This document shows, one piece after another, positions 33,963 to 55,915 of a stretch of DNA of 64,000 nt. Under the pieces are notes generated by a model. The model did no database searches. It was not told where the DNA came from and saw only the letters and a list, made by a program, of their open reading frames with translations. Position numbers and translations under genes: made by a program. This DNA comes from Gammaproteobacteria bacterium (GTDB lineage: Bacteria > Pseudomonadota > Gammaproteobacteria > JBCCGL01). The stretch covers positions 3,296,001 to 3,360,000 of the forward strand of contig OZ255836.1 in assembly GCA_965277715.1 (NCBI GenBank). Reading direction: 5' to 3'. Each line of letters starts with the position of its first letter. The stretch's first letter is position 1.

Positions 33963-34040
33963 ACCTAAATTCCGCAGTTGAATCTACTGCGAGCACCTAA
34001 TGCACAGAATCCAAAGCGCTTTTACCAGCATTTCAGCTTC
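33963..34040. mobile_element. Truncated copy (left about 78 bp) of the TTA-flanked MITE
   Basis: ACCTAAATTCCGCAGTTGAATCTACTGCGAGCACC...CATTTCAGCTTC aligns with 14958-15035; preceded by TTA. Confidence 0.85.
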
Positions 34041-40431: not shown

Positions 40432-40553
40432 AGTGCGTCCTTTGGTTCGGTTGCGTTGTGATAGACACACCATAATGCCATAGAACAATGAAAAATCCGA
40501 ATTGTTGGCTACACTCAAGAGACACTTTGTTCCGGTTGGCAAGGGGAAAGCCT

Positions 40554-41090: not shown

Positions 41091-41097
41091 GTGAACG

Positions 41098-42057
41098 GTG
41101 GAAATTGCTACACTACAGCGCGCTTATGAGCGGGAGAAGGCCAAGAGGGTGCAAGCGGAATCATTGTTGGAGGATAAGTCGCGTGAGCTGTTCCTTTCTT
41201 ACGAGGCGTTACAAAAATCCCACAATGAAATAAAGCAGGCTCACGAGGAATTAATACTCAAGCAGAAGCAGTTGGTTCAATCTGAAAAGATGGCCTCGCT
41301 GGGTATTATTTCAGCGGGTGTCGCCCACGAGATAAACAACCCGATTGGGTTTGTGCTGAGTAATATTGTTACGCTTGGCGAAAATGTTGCTGTATTTACT
41401 ACGCTTTGCGAAAAGCTTGGTGTGCTTATTGACAAATGCAATGCCGGAGAGACAGTGGCTGAGGCGATTAATGCGCTGGCTGCATTTTCCGAACAGGAGG
41501 ATTTGGCATTTCTTATTGAGGATGGCCAAACACTGATCGATGAAACCACAGAGGGTATTGTGCGTGTGCGCGATATTGTTGCCGGGTTAAAATCTTTTGC
41601 GCGTGTTGATACTGGGGAAAAAGAAAGTGCGAATATTAACGAATGCATCGAGTCCACGTTAAAAATACTGGGTAATCAGACAAAATATACCTGCACGGTG
41701 GAAAAACAATTAGGTGATATTCCTGTTATTCACTGTTTTCCCGGTAAGCTTAATCAGGTGTTTATGAATCTTATTGTTAATGCGGTGCACGCTGTCGGTG
41801 ATGGCGGGGTGATTCGCATTGCGTCGGTATGGGAAAATAATCAGGTGGTTATTAGGATTGCTGATAATGGTAAGGGGATTCCGGCTGAAAATATCCCCAA
41901 TCTGTTTACGCCGTTTTTTACCACTAAACCGGTTGGGGAGGGGACGGGGCTTGGGCTGTCGATATCAATGGGGATTGTTGAAGAGCATGGTGGTGCTATT
42001 GATGTTAACAGTGAGGTGGGTAAAGGTACGGTATTTACTGTAAGGCTGCCTGGTTGA
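41098..42057 (+). CDS. Soluble histidine kinase associated with H-NOX, copy 1
   Basis: AHEINNP H-box, NQVFMNLIVNA, DNGKG, FTPFFTTK, GTGLGL. Confidence 0.95.
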   Translation: MEIATLQRAYEREKAKRVQAESLLEDKSRELFLSYEALQKSHNEIKQAHEELILKQKQLVQSEKMASLGIISAGVAHEINNPIGFVLSNIVTLGENVAVFTTLCEKLGVLIDKCNAGETVAEAINALAAFSEQEDLAFLIEDGQTLIDETTEGIVRVRDIVAGLKSFARVDTGEKESANINECIESTLKILGNQTKYTCTVEKQLGDIPVIHCFPGKLNQVFMNLIVNAVHAVGDGGVIRIASVWENNQVVIRIADNGKGIPAENIPNLFTPFFTTKPVGEGTGLGLSISMGIVEEHGGAIDVNSEVGKGTVFTVRLPG

Positions 42058-42269
42058 TTATTTAGGGGGGCTTTCAATTATGATGTTTCACCACTGCTGT
42101 CCCGTTAACTTTCATAGCAACACCATTTGATTAATATCAGGCATACCATCTTGTATTGGATCACCACGGAGTAATGTCATGAAGTTATGCCTTGGCGTCA
42201 GGCTTTGGCAGCGTTGCAGTAATCTTCCAAAGCGTGCCTCGTATAATTCGCATGGCTTGCTCTCATTTT

Positions 42270-42653
42270 ACCCACTGATAAACCTTCACTTAATCGCTGT
42301 ACAGCGAGTGTGTTGACAGCTTGTTGGCAGGACTGATCTGCACTCATTGTTTGGTATAAAAACAGCGATAAGGTGTCTAGAGGAGGATAGCGACGCGCTC
42401 GAAAATCCGGTTGTAATTCTTCCAGCTTCGTAAGTAACTGAGAGGATGTCAGCAAGTGATAAAAACTCAATGCATCCGAGGATTGAGTTCGGCTTTTGAT
42501 GCGACGTTGAAGAATGTTGACTTTTACATTACTCTGCATGATGGCTGGTTCCTGTGGGATAAAGGGTATTTGTGTTGGCAACAAATAACCTACCATAGAA
42601 CCAGCTTTTTTTGTAATTACTTCAAATACTTACAGCTTAATGAAGTGCCATTC
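42270..42653 (-). mobile_element. IS4-family left end with truncated transposase, copy 1
   Basis: TIR GAATGGCACTTCATTAAG ending at 42653; RARRYPPLDTLSLFL.Q.MSADQSCQQAV N-terminal IS4 motif; inner limit approximate. Confidence 0.75.
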
Positions 42654-42672
42654 TGCCTTGACCCCTTTTTTC

Positions 42673-43439
42673 TCCACACACACAATTTTATCATGCAGAC
42701 AATCCGCTTTGGTAACGGCATTAAAACAAGCAAGGCCATCCGATATCACTGTTGTACCCGGTTCAATATGCTGCTTCGCCCACGCTTCAATCGCGTCACT
42801 ACGAAATCCCTCAACAACATTTAATTTTATGCGTATAGGTTGGCTGTTGGCTGTCGTTTCAACCGCCGCTACAAATGCTGTTTTCCCTTTTGCACCGCGT
42901 CCTCTCTTGCAACCTGAATGCTCACCCCCTAAATAAGCATCATCGAGTTCAACTAATCCTGATAACGGTTTTGATTCATCACGTTCATACATCACTTGCA
43001 TGATCTTGTGCTTTATATGCCAAGCGGCTTTATAGGAAATACCTAGATGCCTGTGTAACGCCATTGCAGACAGGCCTTTTTTATCTTGGGCAATCAAATA
43101 CAGTGCTTGAAACCAACAGGTTAACGGGCGTTTTGTGGCTTGAAAAATCGTACCGGCTGTAATCGATGTTTGGTGGTGGCAGCGATAGCACTGTTGGAGC
43201 TTACGTGTGGTTAATTGACACCCTTTATTATGTCCACAATTGGAACAGATAAACCCTTGGGGTCAGCGCCAATTGTAGCGTGCTGTAAAACACTGTTCCT
43301 CTGTGCCATAGGACTCAATGAAACGACTTAAGCTAAGGCCCATTTGAAACTGTACCGTATTGCGAGACATCATAAAAACCAATTAATTCAATAGCTTGTA
43401 TTTTATCATAGAGTAAGCTTAGCTTGGGTGGTAACTAGG
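42673..43439 (-). mobile_element. IS1595-family transposase pseudogene (internal stop, 3' truncated)
   Basis: MSRNTVQFQ..zinc finger, VELDDAYLGG, KRGRGAKGKTAF, VISDGL; in-frame TGA at 43263-65; left end near 43439. Confidence 0.88.
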
Positions 43440-43513
43440 AAATATTATGATCGATAATTTGGAAATTTATACGATTAGAAAATGGCACGCTACATTTTCA
43501 TCTTTTAAATAGT

Positions 43514-43532
43514 AAATAACTAGCCTGACCCC
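43514..43532 (+). repeat. Solo copy of the Y1-element terminal repeat
   Basis: AAATAACTAGCCTGACCCC, exact reverse complement of 50856-50874. Confidence 0.9.
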
Positions 43533-43539
43533 TTTTTCC

Positions 43540-44162
43540 ATCACCCTGGCCTCGGCATCCCGGTGGCGTTTTAGCTTAAACAATGCATCGCTACGGCCTG
43601 TGTGATAGTGGGCATTCTGGTGGTGAAGCATCAAGCCTTCACCGCCGTTGTCTACCAGTGTATCCAGTATCGCCATTAACGCCTTGTGACTGTCTACCCG
43701 AAACTGCTTTACTGCACGTAAATGCGGGTTATTGGCCACCTCGACGATATGATTAATTTTTTTAATGCGATCAGAAAAATTCCCCACAGCCCCCGGCAGT
43801 TCAAATACATAATAATTAACGAACCGCCATTCATCTTCGATAGGTGCACGTTTTTTAACGGTGCTGACAGTGCGCTCGAAACTGTTTCTGTCGATCCATA
43901 ATTCGCCGTCGAGTGGTGTGTTGGGGAAATTCCGGGTAAACCAATCCGGTGGGTAAAAGCGGTTGCCCTGTCTGGATACCAGGAATGTCCCGTTCCAATA
44001 GGCACGCACCCCGTCGAGTTTTTCGCTCACCCAGTAATCCTGTGCATTGACACCGGGGTGAAATTTTTTAGCGTGTATCAGTTCTGGGGCCGTGTTGGCC
44101 AGTGCTGTACCCAACAGCAGGGCATTGAATAGCACAGCGATGAGGCAATCAATCCTTTTCAT
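43540..44162 (-). pseudogene. 3'-truncated copy of the ATP-dependent DNA ligase (OB domain lost)
   Basis: Near-identical up to DAEARV, then reads into the repeat (MEKGVRLVIY). Confidence 0.9.
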
Positions 44163-44284
44163 GGTGCGTCCTTTGGTTCGGTTGCGTTGTGATAGGCACA
44201 CCATAATGCCATAGAACAATGAAAAATCCGAATTGTTGGCTACACTCAAGAGACACTTTGTTCCGGTTGGTAAGGGGAAAGCCT

Positions 44285-44821
44285 GTGAAAGGTATTGTGT
44301 TTACATTACTTAATGAAATGGTCGAAGAACAGTTTGGGCTTGAAGCGTGGGATCAATTAATTACCCAGTCGGGATCAGACGGTCTGTATATATCAACTGA
44401 GACGTATACCGATGAAGAACTGATGCGTTTGGTGGCGACAGCCAGTGAGATGACGGGTATCGCCGTAAATGACCTTGTCCGGGCATTTGGCACGTATATG
44501 TTTCCTCATTTTTACGCGAAATACCCGGTTTTTTTTAAACCCGATATGACGTTAAAATCTTTTCTATTAACCGTCGATAGGGTTATTCATGTCGAAGTGC
44601 GAAAACTGTACCCGGACGCTGGGCTGCCCAATTTTGACTATAAGGATGAGAACGATAACGAGTTGACGATGATCTACAGCTCACCGAGGAAGCTGTGTGC
44701 GTTGGCGGAAGGGTTGATTGCCGGAGCGGCCAAGCACTTTGGCACGCAATACACAATGGAACACACGGTTTGTATGCACAAGGGTGATGATTGTTGCCAT
44801 TTGAAAATGACTCTGGGGTAA
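44285..44821 (+). CDS. H-NOX protein, copy 2
   Basis: One substitution (FGAY to FGTY) relative to copy 1. Confidence 0.92.
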   Translation: MKGIVFTLLNEMVEEQFGLEAWDQLITQSGSDGLYISTETYTDEELMRLVATASEMTGIAVNDLVRAFGTYMFPHFYAKYPVFFKPDMTLKSFLLTVDRVIHVEVRKLYPDAGLPNFDYKDENDNELTMIYSSPRKLCALAEGLIAGAAKHFGTQYTMEHTVCMHKGDDCCHLKMTLG

Positions 44822-44828
44822 GTGAACG

Positions 44829-45788
44829 GTGGAAATTGCTACACTACAGCGCGCTTATGAGCGGGAGAAGGCCAAGAGGGTGCAAGCGGAATCATTGTTG
44901 GAGGATAAGTCGCGTGAGCTGTTCCTTTCTTACGAGGCGTTACAAAAATCCCACAATGAAATAAAGCAGGCTCACGAGGAATTAATACTCAAGCAGAAGC
45001 AGTTGGTTCAATCTGAAAAGATGGCCTCGCTGGGTATTATTTCAGCGGGTGTCGCCCACGAGATAAACAACCCGATTGGGTTTGTGCTGAGTAATATTGT
45101 TACGCTTGGCGAAAATGTTGCTGTATTTACTACGCTTTGCGAAAAGCTTGGTGTGCTTATTGACAAATGCAATGCCGGAGAGACAGTGGCTGAGGCGATT
45201 AATGCGCTGGCTGCATTTTCCGAACAGGAGGATTTGGCATTTCTTATTGAGGATGGCCAAACACTGATCGATGAAACCACAGAGGGTATTGTGCGTGTGC
45301 GCGATATTGTTGCCGGGTTAAAATCTTTTGCGCGTGTTGATACCGGGGAAAAAGAAAGTGCGAATATTAACGAATGCATCGAGTCCACGTTAAAAATACT
45401 GGGTAATCAGACAAAATATACCTGCACGGTGGAAAAACAATTAGGTGATATTCCTGTTATTCACTGTTTTCCCGGTAAGCTTAATCAGGTGTTTATGAAT
45501 CTTATTGTTAATGCAGTGCACGCTGTCGGTGATGGCGGGGTGATTCGCATTGCGTCGGTATGGGAAAATAATCAGGTGGTTATTAGGATTGCTGATAATG
45601 GTAAGGGGATTCCGGCTGAAAATATCCCCAATCTGTTTACGCCGTTTTTTACCACTAAACCGGTTGGGGAGGGGACGGGGCTTGGGCTGTCGATATCAAT
45701 GGGGATTGTTGAAGAGCATGGTGGTGCTATTGATGTTAACAGTGAGGTGGGTAAAGGTACGGTATTTACTGTAAGGCTGCCTGGTTGA
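44829..45788 (+). CDS. Histidine kinase, copy 2
   Basis: Protein identical to copy 1. Confidence 0.95.
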   Translation: MEIATLQRAYEREKAKRVQAESLLEDKSRELFLSYEALQKSHNEIKQAHEELILKQKQLVQSEKMASLGIISAGVAHEINNPIGFVLSNIVTLGENVAVFTTLCEKLGVLIDKCNAGETVAEAINALAAFSEQEDLAFLIEDGQTLIDETTEGIVRVRDIVAGLKSFARVDTGEKESANINECIESTLKILGNQTKYTCTVEKQLGDIPVIHCFPGKLNQVFMNLIVNAVHAVGDGGVIRIASVWENNQVVIRIADNGKGIPAENIPNLFTPFFTTKPVGEGTGLGLSISMGIVEEHGGAIDVNSEVGKGTVFTVRLPG

Positions 45789-46000
45789 TTATTTAGGGGG
45801 GCTTTCAATTATGATGTTTCACCACTGCTGTCCCGTTAACTTTCATAGTAACTTCATTTGATTAATATCAGGCATACCATCTTGTATTGGATCACCACGG
45901 AGTAATGCCATGAAGTTATGCCTTGGCGTCAGGCTTTGGCAGCGTTGCAGTAATCTCCCAAAGCGTGCCTCGTATAATTCGCATGGCTTGTTCTCATTTT

Positions 46001-46384
46001 ACCCACTGATAAACCTTCACTTAATCGCTGTACAGCGAGTGTGTTGACAGCTTGTTGGCAGGACTGATCTGCACTCATTGTTTGGTATAAAAACAGCGAT
46101 AAGGTGTCTAGAGGAGGATAGCGACGCGCTCGAAAATCCGGTTGTAATTCTTCCAGTTTCGTAAGTAACTGAGAGGATGTCAGCAAGTGATAAAAACTCA
46201 ATGCATCCGAGGATTGAGCTCGGCTTTTGATGCGACGTTGAAGAATGTTGACTTTTACATTACTCTGCATGATAGCTGGTTCCTGTGGGATAAAGGGTAT
46301 TTGTGTTGGCAATAAATAACCTACCATAGAACCAGCTTTTTTTGTAATTACTTCAAATACTTACAGCTTAAGGAAGTGCCATTC
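46001..46384 (-). mobile_element. IS4-family left end with truncated transposase, copy 2
   Basis: TIR GAATGGCACTTCCTTAAG ending at 46384. Confidence 0.75.
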
Positions 46385-46403
46385 AGGATTGACCCCTTTT
46401 TTC

Positions 46404-46471
46404 TTTGCCGTAAAAACGCTGTATATCCTCATTAACCCCTTGGTCTACATAGTCTGTGTAACGTTGACAGT
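46404..46471 (-). repeat. 68-bp internal fragment of the Y1 transposase gene
   Basis: Reverse complement of 51409-51476 with 2 mismatches. Confidence 0.92.
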
Positions 46472-46475
46472 TTCA

Positions 46476-46937
46476 TTACTTTGACTTGGCAACTAATACA
46501 CCAAGGCCAACAATTATTGCACCTACGATAACCCCTACCCAAAACTTGTCCACTTTTATTTTTTCTGAAATAACCTCTATTTTTTGATGTAGCAACTCAG
46601 GGGCGGAATTTATGTCTATTGCTTGGTGGTTGCCTACCCATCCGGGTAATTCTTCAGGGGTAATATCTATTAGTACTGGGATGATGTTTTTTTCTTGAAT
46701 TAGAGATGCCCCAAGTTCTTGCTGGACAGCAGCTGATTTTATTGAGCTTTTAGTTGCTAAAAAGAACACCCATTTAGCTTCATCTAAATGTTTGAATACT
46801 GCGTCAGTCCAGTTACTACCTGGCTTGATAGATATACCAGCTAAGAAAGTATCGATGCCAGCCATTGATGTCATGGTATGTAAATTTTTAGCTAGAGATT
46901 CATCTTTTACCGAATAACTAATAAATGCTGTTGCCAT
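46476..46937 (-). CDS. TIR-domain protein with C-terminal TM helix (cassette 3)
   Basis: AFISYS..D box 1, S.AVQQELG catalytic-Glu region, IIPV; C-terminal FWVGVIVGAIIVGLGVLV. Confidence 0.88.
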   Translation of the reverse strand: MATAFISYSVKDESLAKNLHTMTSMAGIDTFLAGISIKPGSNWTDAVFKHLDEAKWVFFLATKSSIKSAAVQQELGASLIQEKNIIPVLIDITPEELPGWVGNHQAIDINSAPELLHQKIEVISEKIKVDKFWVGVIVGAIIVGLGVLVAKSK

Positions 46938-46962
46938 GTGATGCCCTTATTTTGTTGAAGAA

Positions 46963-47010
46963 ATATAACGCTGCGTTCACCGGCTTGTCCGGTGCAACGC
47001 CTTGTTATAC
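46963..47010 (-). other. Integron attC site (48 bp)
   Basis: GTATAAC-AAGGC-GTTGCACCGG-ACAAG-CCGGTGAAC-GCAGC-GTTATAT: R''/R' boxes, paired L boxes with one unpaired base. Confidence 0.8.
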
Positions 47011-47012
47011 TA

Positions 47013-47519
47013 TTATCTGGTCATGGTCTCAGCAAGACAATGGATTACCTCTTTTCCATCCTCATAAGCCTGAACCACCTCTCTGTATGTGGTAATTGAA
47101 TTGATTTTCCCTTCATGAGCAAAGTCGTTTCGCCAAGTGATTAAATTCGCATATGAGTTTGCTAAGTCTCTCTTATTTGTAACCAAGTAGGATTTAGAGG
47201 CCTTACCGAGTTTTCTCTTAAACCTTTTTTGATACTTATCGCCAAACTTTGAGATATATTCATCACGGATGACGTTTATTTTTATTTTCCCATTTATCCT
47301 ATGAAAATATGCTTCTGTAAAGTTGCCCAGCACCTTGTGCTTTCTTTGTGAAAAATTAATAAATATTTCTTTTACTGCTTGTTCATATACAGTAACAGCA
47401 GCGACTGACACAAAGCCTACATATTTGGCTTGCAATAGCGAGTCAGTAATGGATGGCATTACTGTATCAAGGTGCGTAATGACATCATCAGCATGCTGAA
47501 AATGATCTACGTAACTCAT
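47013..47519 (-). CDS. HEPN-domain nuclease (cassette 2, gene 2)
   Basis: WRNDFAHEG (RxxxxH) and upstream YEQAVKE helix. Confidence 0.82.
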   Translation of the reverse strand: MSYVDHFQHADDVITHLDTVMPSITDSLLQAKYVGFVSVAAVTVYEQAVKEIFINFSQRKHKVLGNFTEAYFHRINGKIKINVIRDEYISKFGDKYQKRFKRKLGKASKSYLVTNKRDLANSYANLITWRNDFAHEGKINSITTYREVVQAYEDGKEVIHCLAETMTR

Positions 47520-48605
47520 TTAGCCACCAAATAAAACGCATTTAACACGTTTCGTTCTGCTACTAACTGTTTTAATATCTGTAGTATTCACGCTTGTATC
47601 TTCTAAAAATTTTTCATCAACAATAAGTTTATTAAATCTTTCTGAAAGACTGAATTTAGATAGTTTGGAGTGGTTTTCAATCATTACAGACATAACAGAA
47701 TCCAAAGCAGAAATGTTAATTGGACCTCTTAAATTGAATGGTTTTTCTCCTAACTCAGAAATTATTTGCTCCGTGACTTCAGGAAATATCTTTAGAAAAT
47801 TAACCACTTTTTTAGTATTACCGCCTTGATGCTTCTTCATTGCCTTATTGAGATATTCTTTCATCGGCTTTTCGTATCCACCTTGTGAGCCAACAAGAGA
47901 AAATATCCTTAACAAAAGTTCGACATCTTTTTGGTGTTTATCTAGATTTTTCCTACCCAGGATCAAACGCCAGTTTGGATCTCTATTAGCTTCTTTTAAT
48001 AGACTGCTAAATTTACCTCGGAACACGCAGTTGCGAATCTCTTGAGGTTTTAACGGAGTTCCGCCAGTATTCAACCTTTCAAATATATGATAAGCACTGG
48101 TGCTCTCTCCAATCGGATTGAGCTGCCTAATATTAATGGCTCGCAATACTGCTTGTTTCAACTTCCTTTGGTCTGACTCACCCAAGTCTTCAAATTTTTT
48201 ACCATTGTAAGGATTGCCATCGCCAAGCCCTGAGAGTCTAAAAACCTGCCGTTTACCATGTGTACTTTCTTTTCCAAAGTATCCTTCCATAAAAAAAACG
48301 ATACTTAAAATCCTCTGCTGTCCATCAATAACAGAATTCATACTATTCTCGTCAATGTAGAAAAATACAGGCGGTACAGGTAGTCCGGCTAAAAAGGAAT
48401 CTACTAAAAGAGATGATTGCTTTATTCCCCAGACAAACTCGCGTTGGTAGTCCGGAATTTCAATATCTCCATCTTTCCACATCTGAGCAATACCGGATAA
48501 TGTATAGTCTGATGGGTAGCTTGCAATATCGTATTGAACCGTAACCGCATCCTCATCTTCTTCCACTTCGGTAGCTACGTCATCTTCCGCGAATTTTAAA
48601 TTCAT
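47520..48605 (-). CDS. DUF262 (GmrS/ParB-like) protein (cassette 2, gene 1)
   Basis: PDYQREFVW, VIDGQQR, IFERLNTGG..L.PQEIRN. Confidence 0.9.
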   Translation of the reverse strand: MNLKFAEDDVATEVEEDEDAVTVQYDIASYPSDYTLSGIAQMWKDGDIEIPDYQREFVWGIKQSSLLVDSFLAGLPVPPVFFYIDENSMNSVIDGQQRILSIVFFMEGYFGKESTHGKRQVFRLSGLGDGNPYNGKKFEDLGESDQRKLKQAVLRAINIRQLNPIGESTSAYHIFERLNTGGTPLKPQEIRNCVFRGKFSSLLKEANRDPNWRLILGRKNLDKHQKDVELLLRIFSLVGSQGGYEKPMKEYLNKAMKKHQGGNTKKVVNFLKIFPEVTEQIISELGEKPFNLRGPINISALDSVMSVMIENHSKLSKFSLSERFNKLIVDEKFLEDTSVNTTDIKTVSSRTKRVKCVLFGG

Positions 48606-48645
48606 ATATATAACTTATTAAAAAAATTTCTTAATCGAACCGTAA

Positions 48646-48707
48646 GCATAACGCCTACCATCAGCGGCGCGCACCTTTGGCGCGTCCGCTGGATGGTTTT
48701 GTTAGGG
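48646..48707 (-). other. Integron attC site (62 bp)
   Basis: CCCTAAC-AAAAC-CATCCAGCGGACGCGC..GCGCGCCGCTGATG-GTAGGC-GTTATGC with two unpaired bases. Confidence 0.88.
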
Positions 48708-50065
48708 CCTGATTTCAACTGCAAGAACACCACCATCAACTCGAGACGTGACTTGGCCGACATTTGGATTAGCATGGCTTATTGCTAGCGACTCTACCAA
48801 TTTGCTGCCTTTCATCTTGTTGACTTGAACGGAGTATCTTTCTTTCGGTTGATGTAATCCAGGTGGTGTGGCTAGGTTAAAAGAAAACGAAAGTTCTCCT
48901 GGGATGCCATTTTTTGAAACTTGGACAGGGCTAGTGTTTGTGTTTGGTAGGACTCTTTTCTTATTAGCGTTATATTGTAATTTAGCCAGCCTCTGCCCTT
49001 ACAACCTAACCAGGTTTTAAACGGGCCCCGGATGGCGCCACAACCACCAACCTTACCTCTCGCTAATACACAACGATTTCCGCTTGGTACCGTACCTTCA
49101 AAAGCAGAATGGCAGCTTTCGCCGGTTACTGAGACATCTGCTCTGATCAATGTTCCAGGGCCACTAATACACCATTCGCGGTCTACCCTATAGCTATCAT
49201 CACATATGCTACTTCCAGTATTTGCAAAAGGCTGTACTGGCTCTGCTACCTCTCTAAATGCTGTGTGCTCTACATGAGTAGAACCTGAAAGCTCATAGCG
49301 AAAAGGGGGTTCAAGAACAGTCAAACCAATTGGGCTTGAGCTAGCTGTGGCTGTATTTTCATGGCAACCGAGAACCCCCCATAACCACAAAGAACGGCTT
49401 ATTTCTTCAAGATTATCTACTTTAACGCTAACAATAACGTCGTTTTGATCTGCGGATTCCACTACAGATTTCGATATCTCAACAGATATTGCTGAGTCAA
49501 GGCGTTCAATAATTCTTGCCTCTATACCATTGACCAAAACCTTTAGGTTTTCTCCTTGGCGTAAAAAATTACCTTTTAGTGTTAATTTAGGAATGTCTTG
49601 GCCCACTTGTAATGTTGGAGGAAAGGAAGCAACAACTCTCGGCTTAGAATCTCTGCAAGGTAACGAATAACTTGTGTTGTATGCCAATATGTCCGCATCG
49701 ACTATAGTTGTTCTTGCTTCTTCACCAGCTTTCGCAATTATTTTCTGAGTTGCGACTTTCATGGTTCGAGTTAACTCTTGAGCATCTTCTACTAGCCTTA
49801 ATTCTGCCCCTTCGAGTTTATCTACAGTGTATTCCAGTTTGTGACCTAGCATTCTGTCAATGTCAGCTAGTACATTTTGCGCATTAGCCTGTAATGAGTT
49901 TCCTATGCTTTGAATGTCTTCGGTTCCTTCGTACATTGCTTCTCGAAATGACTCTATAAATCCTTCCAAAGTACTTTTTATAGCTAGAATAGTCAGAGGT
50001 TCCGCGGATACGGTATTTGAAGCCATTAATGTAATAGCGCAGATAAATAGACGTAATTTTTTCAT
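48702..50065 (-). pseudogene. Secreted Cys-rich hypothetical protein (cassette 1), frameshifted near 48940
   Basis: Signal peptide; ORF stops at 48872, but a second frame stays open from about 48940 to the TAA inside the attC R'' box. Confidence 0.7.
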
Positions 50066-50095
50066 TTGATCATTTCTACTTTGGTTTTTTTATTA

Positions 50096-50112
50096 CCCTA
50101 ACAGTATTTTAC
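50096..50112 (-). other. attI-like recombination site
   Basis: Minus strand GTAAAA-TACT-GTTAGGG, same spacing as attI1 (CTAAAA-CAAA-GTTRRRY); GTTAGGG is complementary to the CCCTAAC of the first attC. Confidence 0.6.
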
Positions 50113-50339
50113 AAAGGCCAAAGACCTCTGTAACATTATTATGAGGTGACCTCTTAATTCTTCCCAAGTATTGAGAAATTTTTGTAAGTGGCTGATTCAT
50201 ATCACTATATTTTTCTCATTTTGATACTAAAAACAATACAGAAGTCTTTGATATTTAGTATTATTGTTTTTTAGCTACAGTTAGAGTAGCAGAAAATTTC
50301 AGGGGCAGCCAATTTTAATTAATTTTTTTAATTCTTAAC

Positions 50340-50505
50340 CTTGAAAGCGATGGTATCGACTACGCTATTGCTGGTGACTATGCTGTAGCGTTACACGGGG
50401 TTATCCGTGGCACGATTTCGGCAGGCGTTGGCAAACCATGATCAGAATATCGAGGACATAAAGACCTTACGTTTGCTGAAAGAAGACGATGAAAACAAAA
50501 AGAAC
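50340..50505 (+). pseudogene. Nucleotidyltransferase gene remnant
   Basis: LESDGIDYAIAGDYAVALHGVIRGT followed by a deletion and EDIKTLR tail. Confidence 0.6.
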
Positions 50506-50514
50506 AAAAAGGGG

Positions 50515-50850
50515 TCAATCGTATTTAATATTTTTCAAACGGTTGCAAACCTGCTCAAACACGCCCTTCAAGCCGCCGTCTGACAGCCCACTCTTTACAT
50601 AATCAATTGCAGGAGAAAGGCTACTAACACGACTATATCCAAACATATCAACCAGCGTTTTTAACGGCATATCCCCCAATTGCTGACAACAATATATCGC
50701 TACTTTACGAGGCAGATTCGCCCGTTGTCTCCCCCGCTGTCGCGTAAGTACATCACTCGCGTTAACGCCAAACACCGCTGCCACTGCATCGACTATAGCT
50801 GCACCCTTTGGCTTGTTCGTCACAATATGGGACAAGTCCCCCGATATGTG
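50515..50850 (-). pseudogene. C-terminal (DnaA-C-like HTH) fragment of a second, diverged Y1 transposase
   Basis: ANLPRKVAIYCCQQLGDMPLK resembles ANIPRKLAMYYCQRFGDMSLK of 50901-51869; stop TGA lies in the TGACCCC motif. Confidence 0.8.
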
Positions 50851-50855
50851 GAAAA

Positions 50856-51882
50856 GGGGTCAGGCTAGTTATTTATCATAGATTATGTCAATATCACCCC
50901 ATGCCAAGACCTCACCGCATAGAATATGAAAACGCCTTCTACCATATAATAAACCGTGGTCGGGAGCGTAAGACGGTTTTTCATAGCGAAGCTTACTACC
51001 AAGCGTTTCTCGCCACATTGACCGAAGCCGCAGAGCGTTTTCACGCCGTGATTCACGCTTATTGCCTAATGGGCAATCACTACCACCTACTGCTGGAAAC
51101 ACCTGATGCTAACCTCAGTCGCATTATGCAGCATATCGATGGTGTCTATACACAGCGTTATAACCGCCTTAAAAAAACGGATGGTTCTCAGTTTAGAGGG
51201 CGATTTAAAGCCATCAATGTCGATGAAGATGCGTATCTATTACCCCTGTCTCGCTATATACATAGAAACCCCATTGAGACTAAACGACCTCTGGTTCAAT
51301 CGCTAAAGAACTATTCCTGGTCTAGTTACCCGGCTTACATAGGAAAAGCATTGAGCCCTACTTGGTTGTGTCGTGATCGTGTTTATGCCTGTTTACCGGT
51401 GAAAAACGACTGTCAACGTTACACAGACTATGTAGACCAAGGGGTTGATGAGGATATACAGCGCTTTTACGGCAAAAATAACCTATCGACGGTGTTAGGT
51501 GACAAGGTGTTCCGCTCACAGTTGGCCGAGTACAAAGAAAGCCAGAGTGGCGTTGATGTGCGGCCCCAATTGCGGGAAAAGGTAGCCAGCAGTGTGATAG
51601 TAAAAACGGTGGCAAATTGTTGCCGAGTGAGTGAAGGCAGTGTTTCGGGTAGTCAAGGTAAGGGGGGTAGCGCGAACATTCCCCGCAAATTGGCCATGTA
51701 CTACTGCCAGCGGTTTGGTGATATGTCGTTAAAGGCGATTACTCAACATTTTGGGTTAAGTCACCCTGGTGGTGTGTCGAGTGCAATAGCTCACGTCAAG
51801 AAGGCGCTGGACAAGGGAGAACTTAAAGAGGTGATGCATCAAATTGAAAATCAGTTGAATAGTAAATAACTTGCCTGACCCC
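50856..51882 (+). mobile_element. Y1/HUH transposase element bounded by 19-bp inverted repeats
   Basis: GGGGTCAGGCTAGTTATTT (50856-74) and AAATAACTTGCCTGACCCC (51864-82), 1 mismatch. Confidence 0.85.
50901..51869 (+). CDS. RAYT-like Y1 (HUH) transposase with C-terminal HTH
   Basis: MPRPHR..YHIINRG, YCLMGNHYHLL (HUH), SRYIHRNP (catalytic Tyr), YSWSSY. Confidence 0.92.
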   Translation: MPRPHRIEYENAFYHIINRGRERKTVFHSEAYYQAFLATLTEAAERFHAVIHAYCLMGNHYHLLLETPDANLSRIMQHIDGVYTQRYNRLKKTDGSQFRGRFKAINVDEDAYLLPLSRYIHRNPIETKRPLVQSLKNYSWSSYPAYIGKALSPTWLCRDRVYACLPVKNDCQRYTDYVDQGVDEDIQRFYGKNNLSTVLGDKVFRSQLAEYKESQSGVDVRPQLREKVASSVIVKTVANCCRVSEGSVSGSQGKGGSANIPRKLAMYYCQRFGDMSLKAITQHFGLSHPGGVSSAIAHVKKALDKGELKEVMHQIENQLNSK

Positions 51883-51994
51883 TTTCTTAGCGGGTCAATA
51901 TATGACCCCTTTCTTTCGGACACCCTGCAATTACAACTCGTCAGCTAACAAGCCTATTTTAGCGGGCGCTTCAAACAAAATATTAATATCAAAA

Positions 51995-53596
51995 TTACAG
52001 ACCATCAATGCACCACACTGACTTTGCCTGATCGGCAAGCCATGTCTGATGATTCTCCAGGTTCGCTATATTCCAGCCGTCGTACTCAGCTATTTTCTGG
52101 TTAATCACAAACGGGCTTTTCGCAAGCATTGCTTTCTTTTGTATAAAAGATTCTTGGGCCATATTATCGCTCTTCGATAAAATCGCCATATTGCCCAGTC
52201 GGTCAATTGCGTCGTTATAATTCTCTTCGCCAAATGCTTCCTGCCAATCATCATTGGGTCGATAGGGCAACACATGCTCTAGTGTTAAGCTGACAGGAGA
52301 TTGGTAACCCTCGGATAATTTCTCTTCTATCCGGCATAATAAAAACACGATTTTTTTACTGCTTTGACGGCTCGGCATAGTTTTTTGCTTAAAAGCATTT
52401 TTAAATTCTTTATCCGATGGATAAATCGATTTAAGAAATTGCTTCACTTCATCAAAAGAAATTTCAGGCAATATGAAAATTTTATTCGCCAGTTTATTAT
52501 AAATGCTCTCTTGTTCACCCGCCGATTTATTGCAAATAATATTATACCGAACAGAAATAACCGTAATCCAACGCAGCAACTTGATGAAATCTTTTACTGA
52601 ATAATTACGATAAGCGACCATAAGCACACTCAATGGTGTTTTAATATTGAAAGTATTTAATAACTCTAGATAAGGTTTGGCCTCAGTGTATTGGCCACCT
52701 TCATATTCAAGCCAAAATCCATCCTGGTGGTTTTGTAAAGCTGCGTAAACTGGTGCATTCTTCTTAATCTCATAGATGTAAGGCATGACTTTATCAAAAG
52801 CATTAATTTTCTTTTTCACAATTCGATATAGATCTTTTTTATACGGCAAAGAATCACTAATACCTATATGGCTTCTCAAAAAATTAGTGAAATCTGTGGC
52901 ACCTAATTGACCCAAAATATCACCCCAATGCCGTTCAAATATTCCAAAATTATTTTCTGTCATTTGAGAACCCGTTGACAGAGTGGATAAAAAATAGTTT
53001 TTTAGCAAATCAGGCGCTGATAAATGCATACCACGTGCATTCAAAGTTTCAAAGACAAGGTAAGCATTTAAGTCATCTTTAACTGTAATTGTAGTGAACA
53101 TTAAACCATCAGTGATATTATTAATTAGCTTCGCCACTTCCTCGCCACTTTTAAAAGCACGCATCTTCTTTTGAAAAAAATCGAACGTTTTATTAAGCTT
53201 TCTATTAGTCCTTGTGATGCCTCTTTTTCTGGGCACACCATACTGATCTAACATATCGATAAAATGCGGGTTATTGTGGCGGTTCAACTCTAATTTTGAA
53301 GAGGTTTGTAATGTTACCGTATCGAGTAAACCGAGATAGGTTTGGTGATAAGTAACCATTCTCTTGTCATTGCGCTCGCTATCTTCACCTTGCTCGATCA
53401 TTTTTTTAAACACGTCGAGTGCCGACAGAATCAACAGCAAAATAGTCGTCAGCCTTTGTTGCCCATCAATGATTTCAAAACGTTTGTTGTCGTCAGATTG
53501 AAAAACCAAATAACCCATAAAATGCTGAATCTGTGCTTCCAGCATTTGCTCAACATCCTGCCAAAACTCTTCCAGTTGAGGTTCTTCCCAAGAGTA
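51995..53596 (-). pseudogene. 5'-truncated duplicate of the DUF262/DUF1524 gene
   Basis: Aligns with 53998-55599 (offset 2003); lacks the N-terminal ..PPFQRD; cut beside GGGGTCA at 53602. Confidence 0.88.
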
Positions 53597-53601
53597 GCAA
53601 A

Positions 53602-53692
53602 GGGGTCAGGCTTATTATTCACCATACAACGACTAATACGGATAAAAACAGTGATTTCCAGCAAGAAGTATAGGAAATAACTGCATTGACCC
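53602..53692. mobile_element. About 91-bp non-coding mini-element with Y1-element ends
   Basis: GGGGTCAGGCTTATTATT ... AAATAACTGCATTGACCC. Confidence 0.7.
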
Positions 53693-53900
53693 GAATGGCA
53701 CTTCCTTAAGACGTAAGCAACTGATAGTAAAGAGTTTATTTATTATTTCTAAGAAAAAAAATGATATTTTGAAAGTTGCCGCCAATGATAACCGGGATAG
53801 TTTTACAAATATTGCTTTCAAGAACCATATGCCAAGTTATCTGAACCAAGCATGTAGTACCAATACTTTCAAATACTTACAGCTTAAGGAAGTGCCATTC
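53693..53900. mobile_element. 208-bp IS4-derived MITE
   Basis: Perfect 18-bp TIRs GAATGGCACTTCCTTAAG / CTTAAGGAAGTGCCATTC; right part matches the IS4 end at about 46350-46384. Confidence 0.85.
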
Positions 53901-53997
53901 TTGCCTGCCCCCTTTCTTTCGGACACCCTGCAATTACAACTCGTCAGCTAACAAGCCTATTTTAGCGGGCGCTTCAAACAAAATATTAATATCGAAA

Positions 53998-55695
53998 TTA
54001 CAGACCATCAATGCACCACACTGACTTTGCCTGATCGGCAAGCCATGTCTGATGATTCTCCAGGTTCGCTATATTCCAGTCGTCGTACTCAGCTATTTTC
54101 TGGTTAATCACAAACGGGCTTTTCGCAAGCATTGCTTTCTTTTGTATAAAAGATTCTTGGGCCATATTATCGCTCTTCGATAAAATCGCCATATTGCCCA
54201 GTCGGTCAATTGCGTCGCTATAATTCTCTTCGCCAAATGCTTCCTGCCAATCATCATTGGGTAGATAGGGCAACACATGCTCTAGTGTTAAGCTGACAGG
54301 AGATTGGTAACCCTCGGATAATTTCTCTTCTATCCGGCATAATAAAAACACGATTTTTTTACTACTTTGACGGCTCGGCATAGTTTTTTGCTTAAAAGCA
54401 TTTTTAAATTCTTTATCCGATGGATAAATCGATTTAAGAAATTGCTTCACTTCATCAAAAGAAATTTTAGGCAATATGAAAATTTTATTCGCCAGTTTAT
54501 TATAAATGCTCTCTTGTTCACCCGCCGATTTATTGCAAATAATATTATACCGAACAGAAATAACCGTAATCCAACGCAGCAACTTGATGAAATCTTTTAC
54601 TGAATAATTATGATAAGCGACCATAAGCACACTCAATGGTGTTTTAATATTGAAAGTATTTAATAACTCTAGATAAGGTTTGGCCTCAGTGTATTGGCCG
54701 CATTCATATTCAAGCCAAAATCTATCCTGGTGGTTTTGTAAAGCTGCGTAAACTGGTGCATTCTTCTTAATCTCATAGATGTAAGGCATGACTTTATCAA
54801 AAGCATTAATTTTCTTTTTCACAATTCGATATAGATCTTTTTTATACGGCAAAGAATCACTAGTACCTATATGGCTTCTCAAAAAATTAGTGAAATCTGT
54901 GGCACCTAATTGACCCAAAATATCACCCCAATGCCGTTCAAATATTTCAAAATCATTTTCTGTCATTTGAGAACCCGTTGACAGAGTGGATAAAAAATAG
55001 TTTTTTAGCAAATCAGGCGCTGATAAATGCATACCACGTGCATTCAAAGTTTCAAAGACAAGGTAAGCATTTAAGTCATCTTTAACTGTAATTGTAGTGA
55101 ACATTAAACCATCAGTGATATTATTAATTAGCTTCGCCACTTCCTCGCCACTTTTAAAAGCACGCATCTTCTTTTGAAAAAAATCGAACGTTTTATTAAG
55201 CTTTCTATTAGTCCTTGTGATGCCTCTTTTTCTGGGCACACGATACTGATATAACATATCGGCAAAATGCGGGTTATTGTGGCGGTTCAACTCTAATTTT
55301 GAAGAGGTTTGTAATGTTACCGTATCAAGTAAACCGAGATAGGTTTGGTGATAAGTAACCATTCTCTTTTCATTGCGCTCGCTATCTTCACCTTGCTTGA
55401 TCATTTTTTTAAACACGTCGAGTGCCGACAGAATCAACAGCAAAATAGTCGTCAGCCTTTGTTGCCCATCAATGATTTCAAAACGTTTGTTGTCGTCAGA
55501 TTGAAAAACCAAATAACCCATAAAATGCTGAATCTGTGCTTCCAGCATTTGCTCAACATCCTGCCAAAACTCTTCCAGTTGAGGTTCTTCCCAAGAGTAA
55601 TCTCGTTGAAAAGGCGGCACTCGATAACTTTTACCGTTGCTCATCACCTCGGCAAATGTTTTATTTTCTGGTTCTAAATAAATTTTTTTGAACAT
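53998..55695 (-). CDS. GmrSD-like type IV restriction endonuclease (DUF262 + DUF1524 HNH)
   Basis: PPFQRDYSW, IIDGQQRLTT, VFETLNARG; TLEHVLP..LGNMAIL...N. Confidence 0.9.
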   Translation of the reverse strand: MFKKIYLEPENKTFAEVMSNGKSYRVPPFQRDYSWEEPQLEEFWQDVEQMLEAQIQHFMGYLVFQSDDNKRFEIIDGQQRLTTILLLILSALDVFKKMIKQGEDSERNEKRMVTYHQTYLGLLDTVTLQTSSKLELNRHNNPHFADMLYQYRVPRKRGITRTNRKLNKTFDFFQKKMRAFKSGEEVAKLINNITDGLMFTTITVKDDLNAYLVFETLNARGMHLSAPDLLKNYFLSTLSTGSQMTENDFEIFERHWGDILGQLGATDFTNFLRSHIGTSDSLPYKKDLYRIVKKKINAFDKVMPYIYEIKKNAPVYAALQNHQDRFWLEYECGQYTEAKPYLELLNTFNIKTPLSVLMVAYHNYSVKDFIKLLRWITVISVRYNIICNKSAGEQESIYNKLANKIFILPKISFDEVKQFLKSIYPSDKEFKNAFKQKTMPSRQSSKKIVFLLCRIEEKLSEGYQSPVSLTLEHVLPYLPNDDWQEAFGEENYSDAIDRLGNMAILSKSDNMAQESFIQKKAMLAKSPFVINQKIAEYDDWNIANLENHQTWLADQAKSVWCIDGL

Positions 55696-55915
55696 AACTT
55701 CAGATTATATGCAAGATGCAGAAAGAAAAACAGTTGATCAATATAGCCACTGCACGCCTATCGTATAAGCTGATTATCAGGCATAGAATGCCATGCATCC
55801 GCTAGAGCCTGCTGATGTTTCACGCTAAGCTATTGAATTTATTGGTTTTTATGCAAATTATTATTTTAGAAATTTTATTATAAATCAACAAGTTACGACC
55901 AAACGCCAACAAGCC

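Follow-up and report, generated by a model that had tools for sequence, protein, structure and literature searches.

The stretch between 42.6 and 54 kb of the window (the whole 64,000 nt analysed) holds a defence cassette, duplicated host genes and pieces of IS4- and IS1595-family elements, interspersed with copies and fragments of a Y1 element of the TIRtron type (Table 1). This region is, with little doubt, a nest of family members: besides one intact TIRtron it contains remnants from two further subfamilies, a mini element without a gene, and ends that stand alone or are reiterated.

Table 1 Features of the TIRtron nest and the genes adjoining it, in window coordinates
Feature	Position	Strand	Details
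IS4-family fragment	42268..42653	-	Left end and transposase N-terminus; tblastn to IS4 family transposases
Outer 20 nt of TIRtron repeat	42654..42673	+	TGCCTTGACCCCTTTTTTCT; between IS4 end and truncated IS1595 gene
Counterpart of 42654..42673	46385-46404		AGGATTGACCCC...
Counterpart of 42654..42673	53901-53918		TTGCCTGCCCCC...
IS1595-family remnant	42674..43439	-	Frameshifted; C-terminally truncated at repeat end
Third TIRtron copy	43440..43539	+	Final codons (...LNSK stop) plus right inverted repeat; terminal TGACCCCTTTTTCC borders on ligase copy 2
Duplication 1, copy 2	43540..46404	+	Truncated ligase, H-NOX protein, histidine kinase, IS4 fragment; by alignment
Inverted type 1 Y1 gene fragment, 68 nt	46404..46471	-	Matches 51409-51476, 97%; joined to repeat end 46390-46403
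Defence cassette	46476..50099	-	TIR-domain protein, RiboL-PSP HEPN, NsnA/PD-T4-2_A-like DUF262 protein, 397-aa secreted protein
Type 2 TIRtron remnant	50508..50850	-	DnaA_C tail of Y1 gene retained, 48% identical to type 1
Intact TIRtron, type 1	50852..51888	+	Paired inverted repeats; contigs of other copies diverge at 50850/50852 and 51885
Left inverted repeat, intact TIRtron	50853-50875		AAAGGGGTCAGGCTAGTTATTTA
TIRYT gene, 322 aa	50901..51869	+	Y1/HUH core N-terminal, DnaA-domain-IV-like helix-turn-helix C-terminal
Right inverted repeat, intact TIRtron	51863-51885		TAAATAACTTGCCTGACCCCTTT, then CTT tail
27-nt unit	51889..51915	+	Ends in second TGACCCCTTTCTT; directly after intact element's right end
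Duplication 2, copy 1	51903..53596	+	GmrSD/HEC-06 gene without first 49 codons; 98.8% identical to 53906-55599
Gene-less mini element	53599..53692	+	Left-end-like and right-end-like repeats 94 nt apart
Miniature element of two IS4-family ends	53693..53900	.	37-nt arms, 84% complementary
Intact GmrSD-type gene	53998..55695	-	PADLOC HEC-06, 1.5e-184; source copy of duplication 2
Exact motif starts	42659, 43526, 46390, 51876, 51903	+	TGACCCCTTT match
Exact motif starts	50508, 50853, 53599	-	TGACCCCTTT match; 7-mers at 50511, 50856, 53602

We are confident that the TIRtron is an element of about 1.03 kb encoding TIRYT, in which a Y1/HUH tyrosine nuclease is joined to a DnaA-domain-IV helix-turn-helix. 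Pfam assigns the protein to Y1_Tnp (5e-14) and Bac_DnaA_C (6e-7), a profile of its family matches DnaA structures through the C-terminus (E 9e-14), and all of 25 homologues share the HUH motif (H60-Y61-H62) and Y119. Scores against the NCBIfam models REP_Tyr_transpos (59.6; cut-off 80) and IS200 (26; cut-off 55) are both below threshold. The repeat reads GGGGTCAG, which fits GGGGWSAS; its GGGGTCA core lies 45 nt upstream of the TIRYT start codon, the modal spacing among relatives, and the stop codon falls within the right inverted repeat. Fold prediction gives no significant hairpin for the repeats, and the fold of the mini element is likewise not significantly stable.

A preliminary description of this DNA had proposed that TGACCCC followed by a T tract marks the end of the Y1 element, and that most breakpoints abut it. 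The window contains eight exact matches to TGACCCCTTT on both strands, against 0.07 expected, and none of 100 shuffles reached eight. All eight are confined to 42.6-53.7 kb; a search of both strands found no exact match in the first 42 kb, as had been reported. The motif positions given earlier, including the minus-strand 7-mers, were recovered, as were the two variants claimed at 53687 and 53906: the latter is TGCCCCCTTT, with one mismatch, and the former is TTGACCC at 53686-53692, interrupted by an IS4-type end. The motifs at 42659 and 46390 are not independent, each lying in one copy of the same duplication, and the bare 7-mer TGACCCC is only mildly enriched (14 versus 6.26 expected). That the motif is the Y1 element's end was borne out: TGACCCC with its pyrimidine tail very probably forms the outer extremity of the TIRtron's terminal inverted repeat, which is 23-27 bp long.

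The remnants share these ends. The stop TGA of the type 2 Y1 gene (50515-50517) is the TGA of TGACCCC, and the intact element's left inverted repeat truncates the gene at 50850; in four of four sequencing runs, other copies continue beyond this point with CATCGACTCC... Loose contig ends fall at 43440, 43536 and 43539 in the third copy. The right end of the mini element is broken by the IS4-type miniature element; run X3 contains an uninterrupted version (…TTGACCC+CTTTTCTCT). In the same run, the 27-nt unit that adjoins the intact element follows a different end; this unit is missing from the corresponding flank of the second GmrSD copy.

Judging from the sequencing runs in which this stretch occurs, the organism appears to be associated with sponges; its TIRtron family is very probably young and multi-copy. 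Five distinct full-length TIRYT proteins, 97-100% identical, are encoded on one 4.29-Mb contig, one of them identical to the window's own (which matches P0124 exactly), and a frameshifted derivative lacking 190 nt, whose joint occurs in four of four runs, matches protein P0121. Summed contig depth in bins covering the element is 5-12x that of unique bins, a ratio that is not a copy number. A Thiotrichaceae MAG carries three 1021-bp copies, 99.5-99.7% identical, with sharp ends and no target duplication, and one of its contigs (C40) holds the left end plus 1031 nt twice in tandem, with two right ends 40 nt apart. Since this MAG includes redundant contigs (L143 = L144, L145 = L146), instances of the same right flank with a different left flank may reflect strain variants. 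Contigs from other sponge metagenomes join TIRtron ends to different partners. In run X2, two contigs join 46400 to 50099/50100 across the defence cassette and another joins 51912 to 53596; contigs were placed at 85% likeness, and joints with short sides such as these (29 and 23 nt, respectively) belong to an unreliable class.

Alignment confirms that the neighbours named in the preliminary description are cut or copied at the motif: the IS1595 transposase (cut at 42672-42674), ligase copy 2 (beginning at 43540), the Y1 gene fragment, the second Y1 tail and the GmrSD duplicate. The 'nucleotidyltransferase remnant' also named there is putative, being read by eye from the translations. The second copy of duplication 1 (2.9 kb), 99.1% identical to 39809-42673, starts 5 nt past one repeat end and finishes at another, and the first copy of duplication 2 (1.7 kb) lies between two converging repeat ends, stopping 3 nt from the motif at 53599. 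Overall, five of nine repeat boundaries are no more than 6 nt away from an exact motif, compared with 0.98% of positions in the 39-57 kb region (binomial P ~1e-8); the three clearly independent novel junctions alone give P = 9e-7. Breakpoints therefore abut the ends of the Y1 element far more often than expected by chance. The partner sites, by comparison, appear arbitrary: 39808|39809, 55599|55600 and the interiors of the IS1595 and type 2 Y1 genes have no motif in common, and hence site-specific HUH cleavage of the targets is unsupported.

Divergence within the duplications is uneven. The IS4-family fragment, present in both copies of duplication 1 (the second at 45999-46384), holds 11 of the 25 mismatches between them, a divergence four times that of the remainder, and its inner break coincides with loose contig ends at 42268 and 45999. 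Three of the five nucleotides between the IS4 end and TGACCCC also differ between the copies. This pattern points to gene conversion among dispersed copies, which would be ordinary recombination. At the two ends of duplication 2, the repeats of the element copies differ by ~25% and the duplicated gene by 1.2%, so this duplication is not a simple one-step copy of an element and its flank.

We analysed 41 of 80 retrieved related loci from other genomes, mostly those for which all 3 kb preceding the gene were available. Their 273 kb contain 155 core motifs, where 33 would be expected. Core orientation is almost uniform, at 50 versus 1 within 350 nt upstream and 53 versus 0 downstream (103 versus 1 in total), and at 24 of the 41 loci an end carries at least two cores in the same orientation. 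Successive units are nested, with a common outer tail and an interior of 0-93 nt (unit lengths are 81, 81, 41 and 19 nt at L014, and 110, 41 and 34 nt at L017); some extend to the first codons of the gene. At the metagenome locus L111, an end, 26 nt and a second end are followed by the Y1 gene from about residue 95. The 27-nt and 2.9-kb copies in the window follow the same rule of a fixed outer boundary and varying length. The available text of the two TIRtron catalogues (PMC3733652, PMC6006769) holds no description of such nested arrays for TIRtrons.

In our judgement, there is about an even chance that these patterns reflect enzyme-initiated, end-anchored copying at TIRtron ends. The helix-turn-helix would keep TIRYT on the repeat, and the HUH/Tyr centre would cut a single strand beyond the T-rich tail, a few bases to the outside of the GGGGTCA core, a position that we infer, as we do the initiation of the rearrangements by the enzyme. 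The nick would leave a 3'-OH on the element end, which could be re-joined or prime synthesis elsewhere. Two routes are conceivable: strand transfer onto another cleaved end, or template switching after a replication fork has collapsed at the nick. In both, the resulting copies would be fixed at one boundary, the repeat end, and arbitrary at the other. Short copying events would produce the nested same-orientation arrays seen across the family; long events would produce the 2.9-kb and 1.7-kb duplications, truncated neighbours and indels in the window. The preliminary description envisaged a rearrangement system in which the enzyme joins its end to new sites. An end-driven process gains support from the arrays at the 41 loci, the tandem in the MAG and the alternative contig partners; cleavage of the partner sites by the enzyme itself is unsupported. 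Given that the region is a nest of several subfamilies, part of the pattern attributed to the ends is due to ordinary recombination between copies. The TIRtrons are a mobile element family that has side effects, not a dedicated system.

The main rival is passive recombination among copies, which we consider possible rather than probable. TIRtrons, their mini derivatives, IS4 and IS1595 would have inserted into one another and into genes of the island, and the dispersed copies would later have undergone host homologous recombination, gene conversion, unequal sister exchange and occasional precise excision, the enzyme having moved elements only. Recombination between IS copies is a textbook source of duplications and deletions, and the multi-copy nature of the family, the many end-to-end combinations adjacent in contigs, the different subfamilies flanking duplication 2, and the more diverged IS4-repeat junction of duplication 1, which is typical of gene conversion, all fit such scars. 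However, the junctions at 43535-43540 and 53596-53599 link a repeat end to a gene interior without homology, and because the intact gene copy lacks the matching element, an extra insertion, unequal exchange and precise excision would be required. Nor would passive events explain nested arrays with a fixed outer boundary in unrelated genomes, or their 103:1 orientation.

Two other readings concern the motif itself. It might have been only the preferred target of an IS4-family element that was itself responsible for the deletions and duplications. The transposase fragment genuinely belongs to the IS4 family, the ends of the miniature element match GAATGGCACTT.CTTAA of annotated IS4-family elements, and IS4-type ends lie within the repeat 5 nt before TGACCCC at 42653, 46384 and 53900, and immediately after TTGACCC at 53693; a related end is equally placed in the repeat of L111, an unrelated, GC-rich metagenome contig. 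Very probably, an IS4-family element has landed repeatedly within the TIRtron repeat, each time at the same position and in the same orientation. This accounts for three to four motif contexts and for the stranded part of the repeat, but not for the gene cuts at the repeat's outer end: no IS4 end lies near ligase copy 2 (43540), GmrSD (53596) or type 2 Y1 (50850). Relatives of this element give ordinary ~10-bp duplications at unrelated targets; the flanks of the miniature element show no target duplication. We regard IS4 as a most improbable cause. Slightly less improbable, although still unlikely, is that the oriented GGGGTCA units are boxes selected for the DnaA-like domain, with regulatory or replication-linked roles, and that nearby breakpoints result from protein-bound, fork-stalling DNA rather than cutting. 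DnaA domain IV proteins bind arrays of short boxes; the C-terminal domain of TIRYT is a clear DnaA-IV homologue, and the arrays are oriented relative to the gene. However, the units hold variable interiors of up to 93 nt, even including first codons, which fits copying rather than box selection, and the consensus GGGG[AT][CG]A[CG] is unlike DnaA boxes, according to the available text of Quentin et al. (PMC6006769).

Among known systems, IS200/IS605 elements (IS608, ISDra2) resemble the TIRtron in HUH/Tyr chemistry, precise ends, the lack of target-site duplication, and the idea of cleavage just outside a recognised end, with insertion 3' of a short specific sequence. Their TnpA, however, is ~150 aa and has no helix-turn-helix, and their ends are asymmetric subterminal hairpins rather than inverted repeats. 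The symmetric ends of the TIRtron would call for opposite-strand cutting or pairing of both ends, and since its repeats form no significant hairpin, the IS200/IS605 mode of recognition is not simply transferable. IS91/ISCR elements and Helitrons, rolling-circle HUH transposons known for capturing flanking DNA, would be comparable in having one fixed and one variable end and tandem or multiple termini, and in duplicating adjacent host DNA, but their enzymes are Y2 or Rep-helicase proteins acting on asymmetric ends; nothing observed for the TIRtron points to rolling-circle replication. The IS4-family element here recalls ISPpu9, an insertion sequence described in the available literature text as inserted into REPs, in occupying one position and orientation within a repeat (an unrelated contig adds one case to the three to four of the window). 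Its target, however, is a transposon end rather than a REP, and the specificity is putative, resting on few cases.

REPtrons, in which a RAYT/TnpA(REP) is associated with REP/BIME (REPIN) sequences, likewise place a related Y1/HUH enzyme between its own short repeats in inverted orientation, and TnpA(REP) cuts and rejoins REP DNA in vitro, according to the text available (PMC6006769). The TIRtron, by contrast, lacks GT[AG]G-tagged hairpins, its repeats are non-palindromic 23-27-mers, TIRYT is double the length and carries a DnaA-like domain, and gene and repeats move as a unit. The closest match is the class mentioned in the preliminary description as a RAYT-like catalogue with short GGGGWSA inverted repeats, which is real: in the available text, the TIRYT/TIRtron class with GGGGWSAS repeats was catalogued in 2013 (Di Nocera et al., PMC3733652), and TnpAY1 subclass 2.1 in 2018 (Quentin et al., PMC6006769), neither text reporting activity for any TIRYT. 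TIRtron/TIRYT equals TnpAY1 subclass 2.1.2 (PMC6006769) and RAYT group 1, the most IS-like RAYT group, with a duplication rate of 6.2% (Bertels et al. 2017, PMC5581495). Both the window's element and the catalogued ones combine a Y1/HUH core with a C-terminal Bac_DnaA_C-type helix-turn-helix, and have terminal inverted repeats with GGGGWSAS at a fixed distance from the gene and no REP hairpins. The element is thus of a known class, catalogued but never characterised, and here it is present in many copies. In contrast to the catalogued TIRtrons, the family here numbers at least five nearly identical copies of full length, accompanied by deletion derivatives, solo ends and a mini element, and its ends fall where kilobase-scale duplications and truncated host genes lie.

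The sequence TGACCCCTTT occurs eight times on the two strands of the whole window, against 0.07 occurrences expected, and none of 100 shuffles reached eight. The preliminary description had noted TGACCCC followed by a T-tract in this part of the window; that observation is real, and its positions were correct. All eight matches are confined to 42,659-53,608. The bare 7-mer TGACCCC is only about 2-fold enriched in the window (14 matches, 6.3 expected), and a search tolerating one mismatch also picks up TGCCCCCTTT at 53906 and two unrelated sites. The motif stands in two contexts. One reads TAAATAAC-TNGCC-TGACCCCTTT and is found at 43513 and 51863 and, on the minus strand, at 50875-50853 and 53621-53599. 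The other ends in CTTAAGGAAGTGCCATTC-NNNNN-TGACCCCTTT and is found at 42627, 46358 and 53874, and its 27-mer is also present in inverted orientation at 53693.

The first context belongs to a transposon with terminal inverted repeats. Inverted repeats of 23 nt enclose ORF 50901-51869: the left one, at 50853-75, reads AAAGGGGTCAGGCTAGTTATTTA, and the right one, at 51863-51885, is its complement except for one mismatch (22 of 23 positions complementary). The repeat core, GGGGTCAG, fits GGGGWSAS, a consensus common to many TIRtron repeats (Di Nocera et al. 2013, PMC3733652). It is 45 nt upstream of the ATG, as is most frequent in relatives, whose cores cluster between -45 and -51; at the other end of the gene, the right repeat and the stop codon overlap. 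Among 45 related loci, GGGTCA is part of the best exact inverted repeat around the gene in 22. The encoded protein has a Y1_Tnp core (52.9 bits; Pfam cut-off 23) and a Bac_DnaA_C tail (29.8 bits, slightly below the Pfam cut-off of 31.5). H60-Y61-H62 and Y119, in RYIHRNP, are unchanged across 25 aligned homologues. In the PDB, a family profile matched structures of DnaA domain IV (E 9e-14), through the C-terminal domain only; a search with the single window protein gave no match. The protein thus combines the Y1/HUH core and catalytic tyrosine of TIRYTs with their C-terminal helix-turn-helix, which is of Bac_DnaA_C, HTH_23 or HTH_28 type.

The term TIRYT denotes a RAYT-like gene flanked by inverted repeats, and TIRtron the whole unit (Di Nocera et al. 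2013, PMC3733652). These genes are included in TnpAY1 subclass 2.1, where the Bac_DnaA_C tail is present in subgroup 2.1.2, and no REPs were found near subclass 2.1 genes (Quentin et al. 2018, PMC6006769). The same set forms RAYT group 1, the most IS-like RAYT group, with a duplication rate of 6.2% (Bertels et al. 2017, PMC5581495). No assay, activity, mobility mechanism or role of TIRYTs is reported in the available text of PMC3733652 and PMC6006769. A scan of one genome per species returned 558 relatives, the best full-length one being 56% identical, and among 8,000 candidates examined >6,600 were relatives (TIRYT/RAYT group 1) at E <= 1e-30; the family is very large. We conclude that the window element belongs to a family that is catalogued but uncharacterised, TIRtron/TIRYT (TnpAY1 subclass 2.1.2). 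It differs from REPtrons, in which RAYTs accompany REPs or REPINs, that is, GT[AG]G-tagged palindromic high-copy hairpins: the window repeats are not palindromic, and the protein scores below the cut-off of the NCBIfam model REP_Tyr_transpos. Consistent with this, folding of the mini element and the ends gave no significant hairpin of REPIN-like type (z -1.0, -1.6 and +0.5, the ends accounting for -1.0 to -1.6). It also differs from IS200/IS605 elements, which have asymmetric subterminal hairpin ends and a small TnpA, whereas the window element has symmetric inverted repeats and a protein of 322 aa (NCBIfam transpos_IS200, 26.1 bits; cut-off 55).

TIRtron copies and derivatives in the window
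Feature	Position	Strand	Remarks
Third copy	43440-43539		last codons and right end
Y1 gene fragment	46404-46471		68 nt, inverted
Second-subfamily (type 2) tail	50508-50850	-	48% identical; stop codon is the TGA of the motif
Intact TIRtron	50852-51888		
27-nt unit	51889-51915		directly behind the intact element's right end; ends in second TGACCCCTTTCTT
Mini element	53599-53692		no gene

At 50850 the type 2 remnant is broken off by the intact element's left end. On its other side, a small nucleotidyltransferase-like remnant (50330-50507), read by eye, stops at the type 2 repeat; it consists of an N-terminal and a C-terminal piece of ~30 aa each, in two frames, with an internal deletion.

Near-identical copies, with other flanks seen in contigs, suggest that the transposon is active. 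The window protein is identical to the database protein P0124, whose 90% cluster includes five distinct full-length variants on one 4.29-Mb contig, 97-100% identical, one variant on a 1.8-kb contig and one 135-aa form. The last ends in KITYRRC, exactly the frame that follows a 190-nt internal deletion (51284-51473), and the joint of this deletion was found in all four runs compared. Summed contig depth in the bins of the element is 5-12 times that of unique bins, a ratio that is not a copy number. Contigs of other copies continue into other flanks, departing from the window sequence at 50850/50852, 51885 and 43536/43539, which places the element boundaries at the A/T-rich tails. Many relatives are carried on contigs as long as the element itself (1.0-1.1 kb). 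A Thiotrichaceae MAG (G001) has 19 exact repeat cores and three 1021-bp copies, 99.5-99.7% identical, with sharp ends, different flanks and no target duplication. Two of its contigs, C8 and C1, share a right flank and differ on the left, which may come from redundant strain contigs. Redundant contigs are indeed present in this MAG, and we therefore do not rely on flank comparisons in G001. Within the window Y1 gene, two independent breakpoints lie <=3 nt apart at 51474-51477: the right edge of the 190-nt deletion (51283|51474), and the terminus (matching 51476) of the inverted Y1 fragment, which at 46404 adjoins the repeat end. The site, CGGC|AAAAATAACC, resembles the inner AAATAAC of the TIRtron repeat.

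The second context of the motif is due to another element. A 132-aa ORF (42198-42596) is the N-terminus of an IS4-family transposase, with 40-46% identity to annotated ones (tblastn). Annotated relatives end in GAATGGCACTTACTTAA, and their ends share GAATGGCACTT.CTTAA with the window element, from which we identify the 27-mer as an IS4-type end. IS4-family elements combine a transposase with terminal repeats; of these the window has just the 132-aa fragment, together with a miniature element in which two such ends are combined (53693-53900). The IS4-type ends stand 5 nt before TGACCCC three times and right after TTGACCC once, always in the same orientation (42653, 46384, 53900 and 53693). A GC-rich, unrelated metagenome contig (L111, 3040-3060) has a related end at the corresponding position of a TIRtron repeat, and contigs of run X3 contain the right end of the mini element uninterrupted. 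Judged from these sequences, the TIRtron repeat appears to be a target of the IS4 element, with one fixed position and orientation of insertion; this would account for the small outer pieces left stranded at 42654, 46385 and 53901. One annotated relative has a ~10-bp target duplication at an unrelated site; for the window's miniature element a target duplication was considered and rejected, its flanks agreeing at just ~7 of 11 positions. IS4 insertion does not explain the junctions on the outer side of the stranded pieces.

Two duplications have boundaries at repeat ends. In duplication 1, a block of ligase, H-NOX, histidine kinase and IS4 fragment, 25 mismatches separate 39809-42673 from 43540-46404. 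The second copy begins mid-gene, within the ligase, 5 nt beyond the repeat end at 43526-43535, and a repeat end terminates both copies. At the IS4-repeat junctions of this duplication, which look gene-converted, three of five bases differ and divergence is four times that of the rest. Duplication 2, the GmrSD/HEC-06 block, covers 51903-53596 and 53906-55599 with 21 mismatches. Its truncated GmrSD copy starts directly behind an end; on the far side, 3 nt separate it from the mini element's converging left end. Three further sequences are cut at a repeat end: IS1595, the type 2 Y1 gene and the inverted Y1 fragment. Five of nine repeat boundaries lie <=6 nt from an exact motif (binomial P 1e-8); the independent novel junctions, three of three, give P 9e-7. 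The earlier claim that breakpoints abut the motif is thus upheld, and the 'rearrangement system' built on it was overstated. By eye, no motif common to the arbitrary partner sites of the junctions was seen. The repeat ends would be active, recombinogenic sites on this evidence, which is indirect, and better than a description made from the sequence alone could have known. A 27-nt sequence immediately preceding the IS1595 transposase start (43371-43397) recurs in inverted orientation (96%) upstream of GmrSD copy 2 (55827-55853). We considered a composite transposon based on this inverted repeat and rejected it, since the similarity ends at the transposase start codon, short of any element end.

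Relatives of the element carry arrays of ends. We analysed 41 of 80 loci, mostly ones whose upstream sequence spans the full 3 kb, and found 155 GGGGTCA/TGACCCC cores where 33 are expected. Within 350 nt of the gene their orientation is 50:1 upstream and 53:0 downstream. A core is present on at least one side in 33 of the 41 loci and on both sides in 22, and 24 loci have at least two cores of the same orientation at one end. Successive units have the outer tail in common and an element interior of differing length (81, 81, 41 and 19 nt at locus L014; 110, 41 and 34 nt at L017); at L022 one left-end unit includes the gene's first codons. On contig C40 of G001, a left end plus 1031 nt of Rhs core stands twice in tandem, followed by a toxin tip and immunity gene and then two right ends 40 nt apart. 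As compared here by sequence, the arrays are best described as partial duplications that recurred with the repeat end as their one fixed boundary, a pattern that slippage or unequal exchange alone hardly suffices to produce. The 27-nt unit of the window and the second copy of duplication 1 fit the same rule, each being a block that ends in an end and stands behind another end; the start of the truncated GmrSD copy, exactly behind an end, is in line with it. We found no description of nested end arrays for TIRtrons in the available literature text, and reiterated repeats may already be depicted in PMC3733652 (Figure 9 and Additional file 5). A metagenome scan with AACTNGCCTGACCCCTTT gave 53 loci, nearly all chance or coding matches (one conserved coding stretch 11 times), of which L083 and L111 alone were relevant.

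Bases just outside the repeats are often stuttered: in G001, CTAAG stands three or four times before the left end and CTTAGTC twice after the right end (L136-L138 and L142), and AACAAAAAG stands twice before the type 2 end in the window (50490-50517). At L142 (C40 37000-42000), positions 900-4050, TIRtron ends bracket an Rhs-core/C-terminal toxin/immunity cassette with no Y1 gene, which could be a cargo-carrying, non-autonomous TIRtron.

Parts of the 64-kb stretch occur in 8 runs (4 sponge metagenomes, 3 from one organism), and contigs of four runs were compared with it at 85% likeness. Two contigs of run X2 connect 46400, where the motif's T-tract ends, with 50099/50100 (short side 29 nt), skipping the TIR-domain/HEPN/NsnA-like cassette, which is without cover in this run; another joins 51912 to 53596 (short side 23 nt), skipping the truncated GmrSD copy. 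Sides of 29 and 23 nt are typical of k-mer contigs meeting a repeat and the joints were flagged unreliable, so we regard them as suggestive only. Contig cover is lacking in bins 46.8-49.8 kb and 54.0-54.6 kb of X2 and X3, which alone is no evidence of absence. In X3, one contig links 42677, where IS1595 is truncated, with position 51654 in the Y1 gene, on the opposite strand (side 47 nt), suggesting that the same IS1595 break has a different partner in another population. Further joints connect 43494 to 50546 and 53886 to 50506.

We propose that the helix-turn-helix would dock TIRYT on the repeat, and that the HUH/Tyr centre would nick just beyond the pyrimidine tail, a few bases outside the core. 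The resulting 3'-OH end could then be re-joined to another cleaved end, or could prime synthesis after fork collapse and template switching, and the resulting copies would have one fixed and one arbitrary boundary. Such enzyme-initiated, end-anchored copying at repeat ends is, in our judgement from the sequences, about evenly poised between true and false. It is weakened by partner sites that share no motif, by the different subfamilies of the elements flanking duplication 2, by the gene-converted look of the IS4-repeat junctions in duplication 1 and by repeats that form no significant hairpins. All four are covered by the main rival, passive nesting of elements and host recombination among many copies. 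However, passive nesting fails on the nested arrays and on the homology-free junctions, and we consider it possible but doubtful. Explanations by IS4 activity or by an array of binding sites are unlikely even when taken together.

A broader version of enzyme-initiated copying, in which TIRtrons are active HUH transposons whose TIRYT nicks outside symmetric ends, these ends being repeatedly re-joined or re-primed and adjacent DNA copied behind another end, we put forward tentatively, as a possibility drawn from the sequences. If true, TIRYT re-joining or re-priming would have built nested end arrays in thousands of genomes, with kilobase-scale duplication, truncation and shuffling of defence genes (GmrSD/HEC-06; the NsnA-HEPN-TIR cassette). 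The defence island itself was borne out by HEC-06/GmrSD, an NsnA/PD-T4-2_A-like DUF262 protein, HEPN, a TIR-domain protein and type I R-M. Elsewhere, the window has two adjacent Rpn-family (recombination-promoting nuclease/putative transposase) genes, 278-1155 and 1637-2535, 91% identical over 899 nt; a separate intergenic repeat family, unrelated to the TIRtron repeat, of 81 nt and 95% identity (14955-15035 and 33960-34040; also 15057-15084 and 31669-31696); and, in its housekeeping part, an MNIO-family bufferin maturase (BufB, 2.8e-103; 8910-9746).

If the enzyme starts end-anchored copies, this would be a previously unrecognised route of gene gain, loss and duplication in defence islands, and would link the 'domesticated' RAYT world to true transposition. 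The genome offers a natural case of recent activity, with near-identical copies, deletion derivatives, a mini element and population-dependent end partners, and the nested end arrays give a concrete prediction of where TIRYT cuts. Should the tentative broader reading hold, TIRtrons would be a bacterial counterpart of the flank-capturing Helitron/ISCR elements.
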